Assembly (NCBI GenBank): GCA_963707865.1
Contig: OY970175.1
Span: 16,748-80,747, forward strand
Direction of reading: 5' to 3'
Origin: an uncultured bacterium
Lineage (GTDB): Bacteria; Patescibacteriota; Minisyncoccia; UBA6257; 2-01-FULL-56-20
DNA length: 64,000 bases
Of the stretch, positions 3,789 through 57,918 are shown piece after piece. Position numbers and translations under genes: made by a program. Below the pieces are notes generated by a model. It worked only from the letters and a program-made list of their open reading frames with translations. It did no database searches and was not told where the DNA came from. How positions within the stretch are numbered: the stretch's first letter is position 1; each line of letters begins with the position of its first letter.

Positions 3789-5520
3789 TATTTTCTCTGA
3801 TGTTTTTCAGAAAATCATCTAAATTTTGCGAGCCCTCGTCTCCTTTTTTTGTCCGGACGGCCACCGCGCCGTTTTTTTGTTCTTTTTCGCCGACCACGAG
3901 TATAGAGGGGATTTTCATGAGCTCCGCTTCGCGGATGCGCTTGCCGAGCGACTCGTTCGCCTCCGAAAGTTCCGCGCGGACACCAGCGGTTGCAAGTTTT
4001 TCATAAACCTCGCGCGCATATTCGGAAAATTTTTCGCTTACGGGGAGCACGCATACTTGCGTGGGCGCGAGCCAGAGAGGGAAGGCACCCGCAAAATGTT
4101 CAATAAGGACGCCAAGGAACCGTTCAATGGAACCCATGATGGCGGCGTGGATCATGACGATCCGCTCATGTTCGCCTTTCTCGTTTACGCAGAAAAGATC
4201 AAAACGCTCCGGCATATTCATATCTAGTTGGATGGTCGCCACTTGGTGTTCGCGGCCGAGCGCGTCTTTTGCCATAAAGTCCAGCTTCGGGCCATAGAAT
4301 GCCGCTTCACCGACGCCTTCAAACGTTTCCGTCGTTTTCTCCGCTGCGATCTCGCGGAGCATGTTCTCCGCTTGCTTCCAGTGTTTCGCGTCGCCCAAGT
4401 ATTTTTCGGGATGTACTGGGTCGTGGAGCGAGAGCCGTACGCGGAGCGGAAAGCCGAACACGCCGTAGAACTCGTGCACAATGTCCCAAATTTTCACGAA
4501 CTCCTCTTTGGTTTGCGATTGCCGGCAGAAGACGTGCGCATCGTCCTGTGTGATCGCGAGGACACGCGTGATCCCCGCGAGCTCGCCCGATTGTTCATCA
4601 CGATATACTTTAGTGGTCGTTGCATACCGCTGCGGGAGTTCGCGGTAGCTCCATTGCCGGCGCGCGTAGATCTGCGCGTGGTGCGGGCAGTTCATCGGCT
4701 TCATGACGAAGAGGTGCCCCTCGCGCGTCGTTATTTTAAAAAGATCGTCTTTGAATTTTTCCCAATGGCCGCTTGTCTCGTAGAGCTCTTTTTTGGCAAG
4801 ATGGGGGATATCCACCTGCACATAGCCACGTTCCTCGCGGAGTTCCCAGACGAAATCGTCAAGGAGATTGCGGAGGAGCGTACCTTTCGGGGTCCAAAGG
4901 GGAAGTCCCGGTCCCACAAGGTCAGAAAACGTAAAAAGATCCAGCCGCTCACCAAGCTTTTTGTGATCGCGTTTCTCGGCCTCTTCGCGGAGCGTGAGGA
5001 AGTCACCCAATTCTTTTTTGCTCCCGAATGCGAGGCCATAGATGCGCTGGAGCATCGGATTTTTCTCGTTGCCGCGCCAGTAGGCGCCCGCGATCTTGTC
5101 CAATTTGAACGCGTCGCCGGGAATTTCTTTTGTGTTTTCCACATGCCCGCCGCGGCAAAGGTCCATAAAGACCTCGCCCGTGCGGTAGACGGTCAGCTTT
5201 TCACCGCCCTCCGAGAATTCTTTGACGAGTTCCAATTTGAACGGCTGGTTCTTGAAAAGTTTTTTTGCTTCGGCCACGGTCACGGGTTCGCCCGCGAACG
5301 GCATATTTTTGTTGACGAGACTCCGCATCGTTTTTTCAAATGTCTTCAGATCGTCGGGCGTGAGCGAGCGCGGCAGAAGAAAATCATAATAAAACCCGCT
5401 CTCAATCGTGGGGCCGATGCCGAGTTTCGCGTCCGGGAATTCCTTCAAGACCGCCGCGGCGAGCAAGTGGGCGAGCGAGTGGCGGATGGCATCCAACGAA
5501 GCAGGTTCCGATTTCGGCAT
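3769..5520 (-). CDS. thrS: threonyl-tRNA synthetase (compact, no N1/TGS domain)
   Basis: Starts at the editing domain (RHSLAHLLAAAV, HxxxH); RDHKKLG motif; class II catalytic core and C-terminal anticodon-binding domain; 583 aa. Confidence 0.88.
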   Translation of the reverse strand: MPKSEPASLDAIRHSLAHLLAAAVLKEFPDAKLGIGPTIESGFYYDFLLPRSLTPDDLKTFEKTMRSLVNKNMPFAGEPVTVAEAKKLFKNQPFKLELVKEFSEGGEKLTVYRTGEVFMDLCRGGHVENTKEIPGDAFKLDKIAGAYWRGNEKNPMLQRIYGLAFGSKKELGDFLTLREEAEKRDHKKLGERLDLFTFSDLVGPGLPLWTPKGTLLRNLLDDFVWELREERGYVQVDIPHLAKKELYETSGHWEKFKDDLFKITTREGHLFVMKPMNCPHHAQIYARRQWSYRELPQRYATTTKVYRDEQSGELAGITRVLAITQDDAHVFCRQSQTKEEFVKIWDIVHEFYGVFGFPLRVRLSLHDPVHPEKYLGDAKHWKQAENMLREIAAEKTTETFEGVGEAAFYGPKLDFMAKDALGREHQVATIQLDMNMPERFDLFCVNEKGEHERIVMIHAAIMGSIERFLGVLIEHFAGAFPLWLAPTQVCVLPVSEKFSEYAREVYEKLATAGVRAELSEANESLGKRIREAELMKIPSILVVGEKEQKNGAVAVRTKKGDEGSQNLDDFLKNIRENIERKKL

Positions 5521-9264: not shown

Positions 9265-10125
9265 ATGGAACTTGACGCATACCTCTCCGATAAACAAAAA
9301 AAGCGTAAAAGGAAGCGGCGGTACGGATACGCCATCCTTGTGTGTGCATTCATTTTTTTTCTTGTGCTCGGCGCCGCATGGGTTGCATTCCGCTCGCCGT
9401 GGCTTCGTATAAAAAACATCACGGTGGAGGGAAATAGCGCGGTATCTTCCGACAGCGTGACGACGTTGCTCCAATCAAGCGTGCTCCGCGACCATAATTT
9501 CTTGAAATCACTCCTCGGCATCAACAATATGCTCATCTGGCCGAGCACGCTCGCGACGAGCGACCTAGTGTTTGTCCCGCAGCTTGCATCGGTCGCGATC
9601 GCAAAGGACTATGTTTCGCGTACGGTTGCTATAGAGGTGACGGAGCGCGCGCCGTTCGGAATATGGTGCTTTGTCTCCAGCATTTCCGGACCACTCGCGC
9701 CCGCGGCGGTCGCATCCGACACCGCGTCATCGGAAGACGAGAACTGTTATTGGTTTGATAACCAGGGGGTTCTTTTTAGCAGGACGTTTGATACGCAGGG
9801 GAGCTTGATGTTCGCCATCCACGATTATTCCCAAAACGGCCGCGGTCTCAACAACAGGGCCTTGCCGGATGAGTTCGTGCCGAATCTCATTTCCATCGTG
9901 AACGTGATCCGGGCGAGCGGCGTTCATGTAGACGATGTGGCGCTCAGAGACATCGGTCTCCAAGAAATTGACGTCACGACCTACGACGGCCCGTCGCTTT
10001 ATTTCAGTTTGCGCTTTCCAGCGGACGAGGATTTGTCTGTTCTCCAAAATCTAATGGCCAAGCCCGGCTTTAATAAGCTACAATATGTTGACTTCCGGGT
10101 AGAGAACCGCGCGTATTACAAATAA
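9265..10125 (+). CDS. FtsQ/DivIB-like cell division protein (POTRA domain)
   Basis: Lys/Arg-rich N-terminus, one TM helix, IKNITVEGN POTRA signature; start codon 25 nt from the divergent alr start. Confidence 0.55.
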   Translation: MELDAYLSDKQKKRKRKRRYGYAILVCAFIFFLVLGAAWVAFRSPWLRIKNITVEGNSAVSSDSVTTLLQSSVLRDHNFLKSLLGINNMLIWPSTLATSDLVFVPQLASVAIAKDYVSRTVAIEVTERAPFGIWCFVSSISGPLAPAAVASDTASSEDENCYWFDNQGVLFSRTFDTQGSLMFAIHDYSQNGRGLNNRALPDEFVPNLISIVNVIRASGVHVDDVALRDIGLQEIDVTTYDGPSLYFSLRFPADEDLSVLQNLMAKPGFNKLQYVDFRVENRAYYK

Positions 10126-10416
10126 GCTGAACCCTTCTTTTGTCTTTGCCGCTCACGCTGCGAACTTGAGAAATCTAGCTCGCTCATATACGAAAATCAG
10201 CCACCCTGGTCGCTGCTCCCGGGTACCCGGCGGAGTTTCTATTCGCTCGCTGATTTCTACCTCATTCTCCGCTACGAGCGGAAAATACAAAAGAAGGGCT
10301 CCATGTTTTTGGTTGGAATCGAGCATGCTTTTAAAAGTTGTTCGGATCCTCTCCCGTGCACTAAATAAAATTCTAGGCTCCGAGATCTTGCGGGATCGGA
10401 GCCTGCGAACGGGGTG

Positions 10417-10629
10417 TCATAGGAAACCCCCGCAAACGCAAAACGCATAGCAGAGAATTGCAATTTGGAATGCAACCCCTGCGAAAGCGAAGATTGCGAG
10501 AACGAGGTATGCCTTCGCCTCGCGTGCGAACCTTTTCTCATATTTCTCAAGGACCGCTACCATGCCCGACGTGGTATCCTGCTCGCCGAGCTTCCTCCAC
10601 AAACCCTGAAAATCAGGTAGGAAGAACAT
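10417..10629 (-). CDS. small hypothetical membrane protein
   Basis: 70 aa with C-terminal hydrophobic helix; no homology recognised; may be spurious. Confidence 0.2.
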   Translation of the reverse strand: MFFLPDFQGLWRKLGEQDTTSGMVAVLEKYEKRFAREAKAYLVLAIFAFAGVAFQIAILCYAFCVCGGFL

Positions 10630-10781
10630 ACGTCACCTCCTCCAAAGAACTTAATTACGACTTAATTGTAGCATATAAATCGATATATTGTCAAGTACAC
10701 GTAAAACAGGCTTGTTTTTGGCTAAAAGCCAAAGTTGTTTGAAGATCGTCCAGGCCTGTGCGTCAAGAATCTTTTAGTAAG

Positions 10782-10809
10782 TTTTTAATGTGTATTGTGG
10801 TAGTATATT
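10782..10809 (+). promoter_or_regulatory. promoter-like box TTTTTAATG-N13-TATATT (cassette promoter family, copy A)
   Basis: AGTTTTTAATGTGTATTGTGGTAGTATATTC ~22 nt upstream of the ATG at 10831; same box upstream of three other accessory units. Confidence 0.45.
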
Positions 10810-10830
10810 CGCACGGAACCGTTAGGCTTA

Positions 10831-18858: not shown

Positions 18859-18929
18859 GCGGGTGTAGTACAGTGGCAGTACGGTAGCTTCCCAAGCTAT
18901 AGACGAGGGTTCGATTCCCTTCACCCGCT
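18859..18929 (+). tRNA. tRNA-Gly (anticodon CCC)
   Basis: Hand-folded cloverleaf: acceptor GCGGGTG/CACCCGC, D arm GTAC-AGTGGCA-GTAC, anticodon loop TTCCCAA, T arm GAGGG-TTCGATT-CCCTT; CCA not encoded. Confidence 0.8.
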
Positions 18930-21669: not shown

Positions 21670-21732
21670 TAGCGTAGAACCCATCTTAAAAATAGGGCAT
21701 AAGAGCCATGCGGCCTATTTTTAAGATGGGTT
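21670..21732. promoter_or_regulatory. conserved 16-nt motif TAGCGTAGAACCCATC plus 20-bp-arm palindrome (GAACCCATCTTAAAAATAGG-N16-CCTATTTTTAAGATGGGTTC), copy 2
   Basis: Begins 12 nt after the divergent start codon at 21658; between the ABC ATPase gene and the histidine kinase gene. Confidence 0.5.
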
Positions 21733-21780
21733 CCGGCGGCGGATGGGAAAGGGAGGAGACCAGAATGATAGAATGAAGGT

Positions 21781-28130: not shown

Positions 28131-28149
28131 TCACGCGAATGCCCAAAAA

Positions 28150-28192
28150 CAGTCCAGCACCATCCTAAAAAGTGGTGCTGGATTGTTTTTTG
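28150..28192 (+). terminator. rho-independent terminator (CCAGCACCA-loop-TGGTGCTGG + T6)
   Basis: GC-rich hairpin followed by TTTTTT, 20 nt after the surface-protein stop. Confidence 0.6.
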
Positions 28193-28222
28193 GACAGCTT
28201 TGTGATATAATATGACCAATGC

Positions 28223-28285
28223 TGCCTGTCTGCGCCCCTCCGGCCTCCTTTGAAGCCAGAGTCGGCCGGAGGGGCGCAGACAGGC
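28223..28285 (+). promoter_or_regulatory. 22-bp perfect inverted repeat (GCCTGTCTGCGCCCCTCCGGCC ... GGCCGGAGGGGCGCAGACAGGC) in the 5' UTR of the CAP-domain gene
   Basis: Lies between a TATAAT box (28206-28211) and the ATG at 28296; ends 10 nt before the start codon. Confidence 0.6.
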
Positions 28286-48033: not shown

Positions 48034-49344
48034 TTACGATGGGAAGTCAAATTGCGCGAGTTTACTGGAAGAATTTATGAGATAGAAAATATTTTCCTGC
48101 GGTTTGTAAAGGGGCAATGTCCCTTTTGCGACGGTGACAAAGTTGCGGAGGCCAAGATCGTCAATATCCAGGAAGGAAACGGAATCGGGATACACGACGA
48201 AAAGATGATTCATATCCTTATACCAGATTGTACGGACGGCGTTCTTTACGTCGGGGAGGTTAAACCGGTGGTAGGTTTGCGCATCTGTGAGCGGGAGCAC
48301 TTCCAAACTCCTCTCTTCCAAGGCCGCGATCGCCGAACCGTCGTCCGCGACCGAAAACGTTTTCACGGAGTCCGCTAATTTTTGGAATGTTGCGGCGTTA
48401 ATGTCGTAAAGGTACAGTGCGCCGTCATTTTGAAGGACGGCGAGAAGGTTGGGGGTTGCCCACGCGAGCGCGAGGGTCTCTCCCGGAACGGCCAACGCAC
48501 TTTTCGTCGTCGTTTTTGTGAATTTGTCGTAGAGAACGACGGTGGTGCCGGAAGCGTTTCTGAATCTTGTCCAAGCGATGAAAGCGGGGGAGAGCGCCGG
48601 CGGTGCGGTTCCCAAAACGGTGCCGGCGGGTACCTGCTCAATCATGGAAGACGACGCGAGTGCCGCGTCAACGATCCACACCCGCCGGTCGCCCGCGGCG
48701 ACAACCTTGGTTGCGTCGGACGGATCAATCGCGATGCTTGTGATATTGCCCGTGAACAACGCCGAAAGATTGGTGGAGGTACCATTGTCAAAGTCATAGA
48801 GGAGATATGCACCGCCCCCCCCGCTTTTTAAAATAATATTTTTGAAATTGCTGCTTTCGCTCGTGAGGTCTCCATGGCCGATCGTATTACCGCGCCAGAC
48901 GATGGCGTCGCTCGCCGTCTGCGAAATGAATTCCCCCGACGCGACGAAAAAATTTTTGAAGGAGACCGCCGAAGTGGTCGCGGGCGCATCAGGAACAAGG
49001 ACCGCGTACTTGAGTGCAGCGACGAGCGAAGGAAGCACTTCGGCATTCTCGTGCCAGTCGAGGTAGCCGCCCTTTTTGAGTGTTAAAGAATAGTTGTGCG
49101 GGAAGAGTTCGGAAATGAGTGTGCCGCGGGAAAGAAATCCCGACTGGTTCGGGATTGGCTTGTCGTTCAAAAAAATACTGGCATCTCGCGGAAAGGATTG
49201 CACGTAAATCGCCCCGACCTTTTCCGCGCGCCATAGGGCGAAATCAAATCGCCATCCTTGGGCATAGAGCACTACGCCCACGCCAAGGACGACAAAGACC
49301 GCGACGAGCGTATAAAAGATGGCCCTTCTTGCTCTTTTCGTCAT
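48034..49344 (-). CDS. membrane-anchored PEGA-domain protein with beta-rich ectodomain
   Basis: TM helix, PEGA-like segment (AIYVQSFPRDASIFLNDKPIP...YSLTLKKGGY); ORF trimmed to the MTKRARR start. Confidence 0.5.
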   Translation of the reverse strand: MTKRARRAIFYTLVAVFVVLGVGVVLYAQGWRFDFALWRAEKVGAIYVQSFPRDASIFLNDKPIPNQSGFLSRGTLISELFPHNYSLTLKKGGYLDWHENAEVLPSLVAALKYAVLVPDAPATTSAVSFKNFFVASGEFISQTASDAIVWRGNTIGHGDLTSESSNFKNIILKSGGGGAYLLYDFDNGTSTNLSALFTGNITSIAIDPSDATKVVAAGDRRVWIVDAALASSSMIEQVPAGTVLGTAPPALSPAFIAWTRFRNASGTTVVLYDKFTKTTTKSALAVPGETLALAWATPNLLAVLQNDGALYLYDINAATFQKLADSVKTFSVADDGSAIAALEERSLEVLPLTDAQTYHRFNLPDVKNAVRTIWYKDMNHLFVVYPDSVSFLDIDDLGLRNFVTVAKGTLPLYKPQENIFYLINSSSKLAQFDFPS

Positions 49345-49446
49345 GGGTGAGGTACGAGGTAGATTGTAACACACGGGGGTTTGCACCAAGCCGTTCGCGG
49401 ATGGGGTATATACGCTGCGCGTATATACCTGGTTCGCTCGGTTAAA

Positions 49447-49640
49447 AGGAAAGCTTGCTTTCCTTTTTCCCTCGCTGCCAGGTATAATAATGGTGTCCCG
49501 CCACAGATCTCGGATCAAATAATTATAAAAGGGAGGACAAATCGCTGCGGTCCGTGGATTGCAGCTGAGCCCACCCACTTGGCGGAAAGCCAGAGATCAG
49601 GCGGGATAAGCAAGGGGCCGGCGCGATGCCGGCTTTTTGC
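49447..49640 (+). ncRNA. candidate small RNA unit: palindromic operator (AGGAAAGCTTGCTTTCCT), TATAAT at 49483-49488, ~140-nt transcript, terminator GCCGGC-GCGAT-GCCGGC-T5
   Basis: Promoter-like and terminator-like elements in the same orientation with no ORF between; RNA class not recognised. Confidence 0.35.
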
Positions 49641-49644
49641 TATC

Positions 49645-49816
49645 CTGCGGGTAATTTTGTTGTTCGAACCCGCTTCGGCTCGGGCACTGCGCTCGTTCGC
49701 TTACGAAAATTTGACACCCTCCGCGGCAAGCACGGGGGTCCCGTCAAATTTTCTGCTCACTCGCACGGTGCTGTTTCCTCGCCTCCGCTAGGTTCTCACA
49801 ACAAAATTACCCGCAG
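49645..49816. repeat. 172-nt nested palindromic element (19-bp perfect terminal arms CTGCGGGTAATTTTGTTGT / ACAACAAAATTACCCGCAG; inner 11-bp stem GAAAATTTGAC...GTCAAATTTTC)
   Basis: Seen directly in sequence; between the PEGA gene start and the 3' end of the pterin dehydratase gene; MITE-like or structured RNA. Confidence 0.6.
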
Positions 49817-49830
49817 AACAACAAATGTCG

Positions 49831-50160
49831 TTATTGCGCGGCAAGTTGATTGATCTTTGCGGCGAGGATGAAATCGTTCTCGGAGAGACCGCCGATGGCG
49901 TGCGTCGTGAGTTCAAAACGGACAAGATTGTAGAAGATGTAAATATCAGGATGGTGCCCCTCCGATTCTGCGAGGTCCGCTACCTTATTAACGAAAGCCA
50001 TCGCTTCTTTGAAATCTTTGAACTTGAATTCTTTCGTGATCTTTTTTCCATCGGGAGACGTCCAGCCGGGCGCGTACTTCAAATAGTTCGGCACGCGTTC
50101 GGGGTCCAGGGGCGGCATGCCGCCTTCGCACGGGATGCAATGTTTTTTCGTGAGGTCCAT
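49831..50160 (-). CDS. pterin-4a-carbinolamine dehydratase (PCD/DCoH)
   Basis: 109 aa; conserved EGHHPDI and C-terminal motifs of PCD. Confidence 0.75.
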   Translation of the reverse strand: MDLTKKHCIPCEGGMPPLDPERVPNYLKYAPGWTSPDGKKITKEFKFKDFKEAMAFVNKVADLAESEGHHPDIYIFYNLVRFELTTHAIGGLSENDFILAAKINQLAAQ

Positions 50161-51064: not shown

Positions 51065-51135
51065 TCGGGCCGCCGGGAATCGAACCCGGTCTAAACGCAC
51101 CCCATGCGCTTGTACTACCGGTATACTACGGCCCG
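51065..51135 (-). tRNA. tRNA-Pro (anticodon GGG)
   Basis: Hand-folded: acceptor CGGGCCG/CGGCCCG, D arm GTAT-ACCGGTA-GTAC, anticodon stem AGCGC/GCGTT, loop ATGGGGT, T arm CCGGG-TTCGATT-CCCGG. Confidence 0.75.
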
Positions 51136-57712: not shown

Positions 57713-57764
57713 GGTACCGCCTGTGGATAACAAAATATGTTATACTCAACCCTACAACTAAACA

Positions 57765-57918
57765 GTTTATCTTGAGCGTGGCGAGGGAACTGGCCCAATG
57801 ACCCACCGACAACCCCCGGCAAGGCGCAATTGCGCGGCGACGAAAGGGTGTCACATCCAGCCCGCAAGGGAAAGATAAAGGTCGCAATGCTTTTCTTTGG
57901 GGAAGGGCATTTTTTATT
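57765..57918 (+). promoter_or_regulatory. SAM-I (S-box) riboswitch with terminator-type expression platform
   Basis: TTATCTTGAGCGTGGCGAGGGAACTGGCCCAATGACCCACCGACAACC ... GAAAGATAAAGG matches the S-box P1/P2/kink-turn/P3 consensus; followed by hairpin and T7 run; upstream of metK. Confidence 0.8.

Follow-up and report, generated by a model that had tools for sequence, protein, structure and literature searches.

Comparative sequence analysis indicates that the 486-bp gap at positions 49345-49830 of the 64,000-nt stretch of DNA analysed here (hereafter the window), which comes from a Paceibacteria genome (Parcubacteria/Minisyncoccia, part of the candidate phyla radiation, CPR), probably contains a miniaturised 6S RNA gene that has been missed by Rfam and that would be the ssrS-type gene of this genome. 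The gap, which is as the initial annotation had described it, is flanked by two minus-strand genes and bounded by the ATG (49344) of a gene for a membrane-anchored PEGA/beta-propeller protein and by the stop codon (49831) of the pterin-4a-carbinolamine dehydratase gene pcd. The candidate 6S RNA (unit A) shares the gap with a rod-shaped nested palindrome (unit B) which, to judge from its relatives, is one copy of a low-copy, old family of rod elements of ~160-175 nt with a conserved core and covarying stems. Both units fold more stably than shuffled sequence, with z = -6.2 for unit A and, for unit B, -8.9 on the plus strand and -9.7 on the minus strand.

The initial annotation had described the first of these units as resembling a small RNA gene with its own promoter and terminator, a description that comparative data now strongly bear out; the TATAAT box and the GC hairpin with a run of five T residues which it had pointed out are both present. 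The parts of unit A are as follows, with the structural elements taken from the consensus structure.
49483-49488, plus strand: -10 box TATAAT of the 6S-like RNA gene, a hexamer common to its homologues
49491-49610, plus strand: core of the 6S-like RNA, unit A (covariance model R1, 131.9 bits; RNAalifold; covariation)
49495-49502 with 49600-49607, plus strand: stem P1, 8 bp
49506-49511 with 49593-49598, plus strand: stem P2, GAUCUC/GAGAUC
49512-49530, plus strand: 5' bubble strand GGAUCAAAUAAUUAUAAAA, unpaired
49531-49538 with 49569-49576, plus strand: stem P3, GGGAGGGC/GCCCACCC
49544-49565, plus strand: hairpin P3a, loop CCGUGG
49580-49592, plus strand: 3' bubble strand with hairpin P4 (UGGC-loop-GCCA)
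49609-49641, plus strand: intrinsic terminator (hairpin), stem AGCAAGGGGCCGGC / GCCGGCUUUUUGCU, T-run at 49634-49638

Homologues of unit A were collected in two ways. Through the propeller protein, 71 genome loci were fetched and then searched with R1, which finds the RNA in 54 of them with scores of 45-139 bits. A pattern scan that took no account of gene context yielded 114 metagenome loci, each with exactly one copy of the RNA, and R1 recovered all 100 of those that were searched with it. In all, 129 distinct homologous sequences were found, and the family is widespread in Paceibacteria. All related loci are metagenome-assembled genomes labelled Paceibacterota, Parcubacteria, Minisyncoccia or Liptonbacteria (individual compared loci carry labels of the form L001 below). 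Within the window, R1 matches at 49491-49610 only. The core measures ~120 nt (~150 nt with the terminator hairpin), and the length of the R1 match across homologues is 119-134 nt with a median of 123. A -10-like hexamer stands 2-6 nt before the start of the model in 122 of the 129 distinct homologues (TATAAT in 68, TATACT in 38), TGGTATAAT being the promoter reading in about half of 30 inspected loci, and a hairpin followed by a T-run is found within 80 nt downstream in 102 of 127. Because the homologues have their own -10 boxes and terminators and occur once per locus, we regard unit A as an independent single-copy transcription unit. We would like to note that a simple promoter scan found no two-hexamer sigma-70 promoter, and that the same scan left the terminator unflagged, as it appears to choose the maximal stem, which absorbs the T-run. 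The A-rich/stem/U-rich symmetry of this terminator suggests that it could work in both directions. In close relatives, namely L001/L003 and L002/L004 with propeller proteins that share 87-89% identity with the window's own, positions 49491-49640 are almost invariant and the hairpins carry compensatory changes. A small protein encoded in unit A was considered and rejected: the sole candidate frame is without a standard start codon, and the differences among relatives are compensatory in stems, not synonymous.

The structure of unit A was derived with RNAalifold from a 12-sequence alignment, in which 12 of the 34 pairs already show double compensatory changes. The covariation analysis in relatives that the initial annotation had recommended gives this structure strong support. 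Across 86 distinct sequences, 94.8% of cells pair, as opposed to at most 51% in slid controls, double changes are seen in 27 of the 34 pairs, and the covariation score is 0.561 against no more than 0.07 in the slid controls. G-U pairs are frequent and A-C cells are rare; with G-U far above A-C cells, the RNA strand is therefore the plus strand of the window. The resulting layout consists of a closing stem, an A/U-rich 5' bubble strand of 19-20 unpaired nt (CGGAUCAAAyAAU...), an internal hairpin, and a 3' bubble strand with a small hairpin.

This layout is that of 6S RNA, which is described as present in nearly all bacteria and as a rod of 160-200 nt with an enlarged central bulge (PMC8414754). 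In the type found in Bacillus subtilis, a hairpin lies opposite the 5' bulge, and the bulge carries the start site of the product RNA (PMC8414754, PMC8876501). As judged by RNAalifold and the 86-sequence covariation, unit A forms a rod with a closing stem, a large central bubble and a loop-capped internal stem, and it has conserved nucleotides flanking the bubble together with a hairpin in the 3' bubble strand (P4), as in the B. subtilis type. Sequence likeness points the same way. In E-value scans of short loci, the Rfam 6S family (RF00013, SsrS) was matched in 7 of 32 family members at 21.8-26.2 bits, the matches sitting exactly on the coordinates and strand of the RNA and being mostly full-length; no 6S match was retrieved elsewhere in the ~70 kb scanned (32 short loci with family members). 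Where the family matches, it does so in register. P1/P2 fall on the closing stem of the Rfam 6S model, the unpaired CGGAUCAAAUAAU... on the 5' strand of its central bubble ('cCuGAgCCgAaaauuuuuauaaua'), GGGAG on 'GGGag', P3/P3a on the internal stem, and CACCCACCUGG plus P4 on the 3' bubble strand ('caCCCACCUgg..'). The alignments thus place 'cCuGAgCCgAaaau...GGGag' and 'caCCCACCUgg' on the invariant motifs of unit A, and GGGAG and CACCCACCUGG align to upper-case positions, the most conserved of the Rfam 6S consensus. By our own arithmetic, the E-value of the best member, rescaled to a 125-nt RNA, is roughly 5e-4 against 4227 families, and the choice of the best of 32 members raises the chance level of that match to about 1-2%.

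Several points weigh against the 6S assignment. No member reaches the Rfam gathering score for 6S (the best has 26.2 bits where 46.4 are needed), and the copy in the window has no 6S match even at E<=10. The initial annotation, which had considered 6S and found no match, was thus right about the window's own copy, although the family to which this copy belongs aligns in register to the 6S model. In the reverse direction, R1 run with filters off misses Escherichia coli ssrS (L188), giving at best 8.7 bits on the wrong strand, a comparison that covers the gamma-proteobacterial type only. The length of unit A is well below the published range, the Rfam 6S scans took in short loci of ~70 kb in all, and the literature that we searched yielded no link between 6S RNA and CPR bacteria. 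Because of the limits set by the scores, the window's copy, R1 and the length, we hold unit A to be a 6S variant with good, though not full, confidence.

The search of Rfam proposed by the initial annotation matched no family to unit A or unit B; with Rfam 15, neither unit has a match near a gathering score, the only matches being microRNA and small-RNA models at chance level. Signal recognition particle (SRP) RNA, transfer-messenger RNA (tmRNA), RNase P, 5S rRNA and known riboswitches and ribozymes were rejected, as nothing was retrieved for them in Rfam at E<=10; their motifs do not fit either.

Transcription of unit A would begin at its own -10 promoter on the plus strand and end at the intrinsic terminator. 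In the predicted fold of the transcript, P1 and P2 make up a short closing stem, P3 and P3a form a short stem-loop inside, and a large asymmetric bubble occupies the centre, with the 5' bubble strand CGGAUCAAAyAAU... single-stranded and the 3' strand CACCCACyUGG... bearing P4. The RNA known as 6S plugs the RNA polymerase of bacteria. We infer that unit A RNA would mimic an open promoter and fill the active-site cleft of the sigma-A/sigma-70 RNA polymerase holoenzyme, and that it would be released once the polymerase had copied the 5' bubble strand and the 5' strand of P2 into a short product RNA. This product is predicted to be 5'-(G)AUCCGAGAUCUG, and its synthesis would unwind P2. The start sites of 6S product RNAs are C40 in B. 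subtilis and U44 in E. coli (PMC8876501); by analogy with these positions, product initiation is predicted opposite the UC of GGAUC, and the product RNA would then begin with GAUCCGAGAUC or AUCCGAGAUC.

A different reading, to which we give a small share of the probability, is that unit A is some other RNA, specific to the lineage and with a housekeeping or regulatory task, whose partner is the PEGA/beta-propeller envelope gene; the two might, for instance, share the back-to-back promoter region or compete for it. The back-to-back position of the RNA gene and the PEGA/beta-propeller promoter is conserved synteny in many Paceibacteria, though not universal. The two genes are adjacent in 54 of the 71 genome loci and in ~68 of the 114 context-free metagenome loci, the RNA sitting 55-200 nt upstream of the propeller gene, while the gene on the other side of the RNA varies (pcd, VIT1, HSP20 and others). 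Adjacency even outlasts inversion of the RNA gene: the two genes diverge in 49 genome loci but share a strand in 5, as they do in 5 of the 68 metagenome loci. Moreover, the two back-to-back -10 boxes are only ~35-45 nt apart in most relatives, and all 6S scores lie under the Rfam threshold. However, ~46 (~40%) of the metagenome copies are in other, unrelated gene contexts, the propeller protein is probably extracytoplasmic given its N-terminal membrane segment and PEGA/propeller fold, and an RNA linked to the propeller would leave the in-register matches to the 6S model unexplained. That unit A is instead a cis-acting riboswitch or leader, whose terminator controls the downstream gene or an antisense transcript, is very improbable. 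Its three-way-junction-like fold, its highly conserved unpaired nucleotides and the terminator directly after it would suit such a role, as would five genome loci where it shares a strand with the propeller gene and stands upstream of it. However, its transcription points away from that gene in 49 of 54 genome loci and, in the window and the closest relatives, toward a convergent gene; 122 of 129 homologues have a -10 box of their own, and there is no evident antiterminator pairing that would compete.

The genes that bound the gap, and the features lying between the two divergent promoters, are listed here.
48034-49344, minus strand: gene for the membrane-anchored PEGA/beta-propeller protein, ATG at 49344 (against P0001: 100% identity, 436 aa)
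49363-49368, minus strand: TACAAT, -10 box of the PEGA/beta-propeller gene, standing 18 nt upstream of the ATG
49405-49429, no strand assigned: palindrome GGTATATACGC-TGC-GCGTATATACC, a lineage-specific insert between the two divergent promoters
49444-49467, no strand assigned: palindrome AAAAGGAAAGC-TT-GCTTTCCTTTT (the 'operator'), 16-39 nt upstream of the TATAAT box
49831-50160, minus strand: pterin-4a-carbinolamine dehydratase gene pcd, stop codon at 49831

The promoter of the propeller gene is itself conserved: CTACAATC or TAGAATC recurs 10-25 nt upstream of the ATG in ~30 relatives (around locus position 3975-4003), and a promoter of the form TTGAGG-17 nt-TACAAT precedes the gene in L005 and L046. 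Since the -10 box ends just 10-25 nt before the ATG, this arrangement suggests near-leaderless translation of the propeller mRNA. We also observed no obvious Shine-Dalgarno sequence for this gene (49342-49368, minus strand). With the TACAAT promoter this close to the ATG, neither unit A nor unit B belongs to the 5' untranslated region of the propeller gene. The palindrome at 49444-49467, which the initial annotation had taken for an operator, is present, but its reading as an operator finds no backing in conservation: L001 has an unrelated palindrome at that place, and relatives with short spacers have none. The palindrome at 49405-49429 is shared with L002/L004 and missing in L001 and most relatives. 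These two lineage-specific palindromes account for the longer spacer between the RNA and the propeller gene, which is 146 nt in the window as opposed to the usual 55-70 nt.

Unit B follows the terminator of unit A. Its perfect 19-bp inverted repeat and 11-bp stem are as the initial annotation had described them, and it also holds the CTTCGG hairpin named there and a GAACC/GGUUC helix. The features of unit B and of its second copy in the window are the following.
49645-49816, plus strand (given in the same orientation as the gene upstream): unit B, a nested palindrome of 172 nt with a rod shape (covariance model R3, 171.5 bits)
49645-49663 with 49798-49816: terminal stem, a perfect 19-bp inverted repeat
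49705-49715 with 49743-49753: central 11-bp stem GAAAATTTGAC
49703-49790: conserved core
10129-10301, plus strand: copy 2 of the family, diverged (R2, 104.9 bits; R3, 169.1 bits)

The 19-mer of the terminal repeat has two matches in the window, namely its own two arms, where 0.00 are expected by chance. Copy 2 was found by an inverted-repeat search of the whole window; only 3 nt separate its start from the stop codon of the ftsQ-like gene that precedes it (9265-10125, plus strand). It shares with unit B the core ACGAAAAU..CACCCU..GGGnnCCCGG..UUUCU..UUCGCUCG..CUCCGCUA. The interiors of the family members align, whereas their terminal arms are mutually unrelated (CTGCGGGTAATTTTGTTGT in unit B, GAACCCTTCTTTTGTCTTTGCCGCTC in copy 2 and TTAAATCATTTGCTCGAACC in L075). 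R2 and R3 match the window at unit B and copy 2 only, and in ~1.5 Mb of Paceibacteria DNA they match orthologues and three further sites only, for a total of four independent loci. Orthologues of unit B were retrieved by BLASTN in the closest relatives only, with 92% identity in L001/L003 and 76% identity over 96 nt in L002/L004/L166/L169. In L002/L004, the 11-bp stem has undergone two double compensatory changes, and the terminal stem differs yet still pairs. An orthologue of copy 2 follows ftsQ in L190/L192; in L189, from the genome that also contains L001, and in L194, the element is missing from that site. Of the remaining members, the one in L075 has a stop codon 4 nt upstream and the next ATG 20 nt downstream, and the one in L125 comes directly after a stop codon and is cut by the end of the contig. 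All four independent loci adjoin the 3' end of a co-oriented upstream gene. A scan of viral contigs for the core gave no matches. In a six-sequence alignment, the rod consists of six helices in which 91% of cells pair, 27 of 51 pairs show double changes, and the score is 0.497 against at most 0.15 in slid controls. On the plus strand there are 19 G-U and 10 A-C cells, and one U-G pair is invariant in all six sequences.

As to function, our best guess, at somewhat less than even chance, is that unit B is a structured 3'-end module, that is, a terminator, an insulator or a block to exonucleases. This guess at a 3'-end or insulation role comes from other Paceibacteria, in which near-perfect palindromes of 75-226 nt that look like bidirectional terminators stand right after the RNA gene. 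In five loci (L023, L026, L080, L128 and L013), such a near-perfect palindrome of ~85 nt lies just 3' of the 6S-like RNA, reaching 226 nt in L128, where it is duplicated in part; its arms vary by species, its apical hairpin GCCACGUrGGAACGUGAC is conserved, and its 5' arm overlaps the last bases of P1. It is a more tentative proposal that the unit B family forms a new, orientation-specific class of structured elements marking the 3' ends of transcription units in CPR bacteria, defined by the core ACGAAAAU / CACCCU / UUUCU / UCGCUCG / CUCCGCUA in a rod of covarying helices. Its members might be dedicated modules for termination, processing or the binding of proteins, for instance, in the form of either RNA or single-stranded DNA. 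As a novelty, a new housekeeping RNA tied to the PEGA/propeller gene in the form of unit A is less likely than this class. The family is previously undescribed and has no Rfam match. A structured element outside the known families, one of the options of the initial annotation, remains the best description of unit B.

Some of the evidence counts against the 3'-end reading of unit B. Six sequences are all that back the structure, and the covariation test would be passed by a palindrome in DNA as well, which would likewise have long perfect Watson-Crick arms with no wobble pairs. The minus strand folds better by 9-14 kcal/mol in five of five members, and a clear U-run follows the rod only in copy 2.

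Two rivals to the 3'-end reading have to be weighed. The first, which we judge unlikely although it deserves to be taken seriously, is that unit B and its relatives are non-autonomous mobile palindromic elements, such as miniature inverted-repeat transposable elements (MITEs) or elements like the enterobacterial repetitive intergenic consensus (ERIC) or Correia repeats, tolerated only at the 3' ends of genes. The initial annotation had named a MITE as one option, and the dispersion and polymorphism that it would entail were found: the 64 kb hold two copies and other species have dispersed ones, copy 2 follows ftsQ in the window and in L190/L192 with the same site empty in L189, and the terminal arms are long and perfect. 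The other marks of such elements are missing. Conservation is confined to the interior and the terminal repeats differ completely among copies, whereas MITEs usually show the opposite; unit B is not flanked by a direct repeat, and the filled and empty ftsQ sites show no clean target-site duplication; paralogues have diverged from one another as far as copies taken from different species; orthologues have been retained with compensatory changes; and the four independent loci are the only ones in ~1.5 Mb, with none in viral contigs. With unconserved terminal repeats, no target-site duplication seen and copies of old age, this is not a family of classical MITEs.

Somewhat less probable again is that unit B works on the minus strand or at the level of DNA, either as part of the 3' untranslated region of pcd or as a hairpin- or cruciform-forming palindrome that owes its perfection to repair and not to selection on an RNA. 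The greater stability of the minus strand and the 19-bp and 11-bp arms without wobble pairs fit this reading, as do the palindromes of 75-226 nt at the same place in other Paceibacteria and the substitutions in L001, which at two pairs of unit B appear as G-U when the minus strand is read and as A-C when the plus strand is. Nevertheless, in L002/L004 a cupin gene parts unit B from pcd and unit B still adjoins the RNA gene, the U-G pair of the plus strand is invariant and the count of G-U to A-C cells favours that strand, and all copies of the family are oriented like the upstream gene. The inserted cupin-2 gene occurs in L002/L004 only and has its own TATAAT-like box and an adjacent terminator-like hairpin facing the opposite way (CGACCAACGCTTAGGTCGGCTTTTT on the other strand).

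The initial annotation had also offered unit B as a structured 5' leader of the PEGA gene, which fails because that gene has its own TACAAT promoter and unit A lies in between. That unit B is a second 6S copy was rejected, since R1 has no match in the window other than that at 49491-49610. The position after stop codons and the one-strand bias led us to consider an attC site of an integron and a single-strand origin of a plasmid; both were rejected by inference from the conserved core, the variable outer arms and the lack of an integrase or replicon context.

A few further observations concern other parts of the window. Beyond copy 2, ~530 nt (10302-10830) contain little coding sequence apart from an ORF for a 70-aa membrane protein (10417-10629, minus strand) that has a strong Shine-Dalgarno sequence and its own terminator hairpin (10378-10405). 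At 21677-21733 there is a 57-nt hairpin with perfect 20-bp arms (GAACCCATCTTAAAAATAGG / CCTATTTTTAAGATGGGTTC), which resembles the inner helix of unit B in opening with GAACCC and closing with GGGTTC and may be a terminator or some short element related to unit B. Hairpins closed by GAACC...GGTTC were rejected as a wider repeat family, as the additional matches in the window fall inside coding regions. Two further long hairpins are adjacent to one another at 28142-28193 and 28224-28285, with arms of 21 nt and 29 nt that are each 90% complementary, the first having an A-tract/T-tract shape. The window also contains a SAM-I riboswitch aptamer at 57764-57881 (plus strand; 53.5 bits, above the Rfam gathering score) and tRNA genes at 18859-18929 (plus strand) and 51065-51135 (minus strand), the second just upstream of a VIT1/rubrerythrin-like gene.

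If unit A is indeed a 6S RNA, annotation pipelines systematically overlook a global regulator of transcription in a very large bacterial group, the CPR. Nature would also have arrived at the same minimal design, a bubble with two short arms, which had been shown to work in vitro with engineered constructs only (PMC8876501), and unit A would offer a compact natural model for asking which parts of 6S RNA the polymerase really needs for recognition. The alignment behind R1 could seed an Rfam family. Unit B, for its part, adds a small, well-defined family of covarying rods that sit at the 3' ends of genes in ultra-small genomes, in which no non-coding base is expected to escape scrutiny.

Compared with 6S/SsrS RNA (RF00013), and the B. 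subtilis 6S-1 RNA in particular, unit A is likewise a free-standing gene whose product would be a rod with an A/U-rich single-stranded 5' bubble strand, and, as in 6S-1, a small hairpin is preformed in its 3' bubble strand. It differs in its core of ~120 nt, in which both arms are short and the '-35-like' arm is largely missing. In E. coli, 6S RNA is linked to the gene for 5-formyltetrahydrofolate cyclo-ligase, a link that unit A does not have: none of 10 downstream proteins, judged by reading their sequences without a family search, resembles this enzyme, and on the same reading they resemble HD-domain proteins, NifS, LepA and PurD. The closest parallel in layout is an engineered one. Truncated 6S-1 RNA, reduced to the bubble and two short arms, still completes the cycle of binding, product-RNA synthesis and release in vitro, with an affinity about 10-fold lower (PMC8876501). 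Unit A has the same minimal layout, but whereas the truncated forms are laboratory constructs, that of unit A would be natural and conserved across a whole bacterial class.

For unit B, the nearest known systems are small palindromic intergenic repeats and bidirectional terminators. The ERIC sequences, or intergenic repeat units (IRU), of enterobacteria and the Correia elements of Neisseria are imperfect palindromes of 100-180 nt that are transcribed, intergenic, dispersed and near gene 3' ends, with presence/absence differences, all of which recalls unit B. In contrast to them, the unit B family is very low in copy number, has unconserved terminal repeats with no target-site duplication seen, keeps a uniform orientation to the upstream gene, and has stems that covary around a conserved core. 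Like bidirectional intrinsic terminators, unit B stands between convergent transcription units and copy 2 is followed by UUUUU, and in other Paceibacteria the RNA gene is followed by a palindrome made up of an A-tract, a long stem and a U-tract. Unlike such terminators, the window's unit B lacks a U-tract on both strands, and its 172 nt and conserved internal-loop sequences go far beyond what termination requires.

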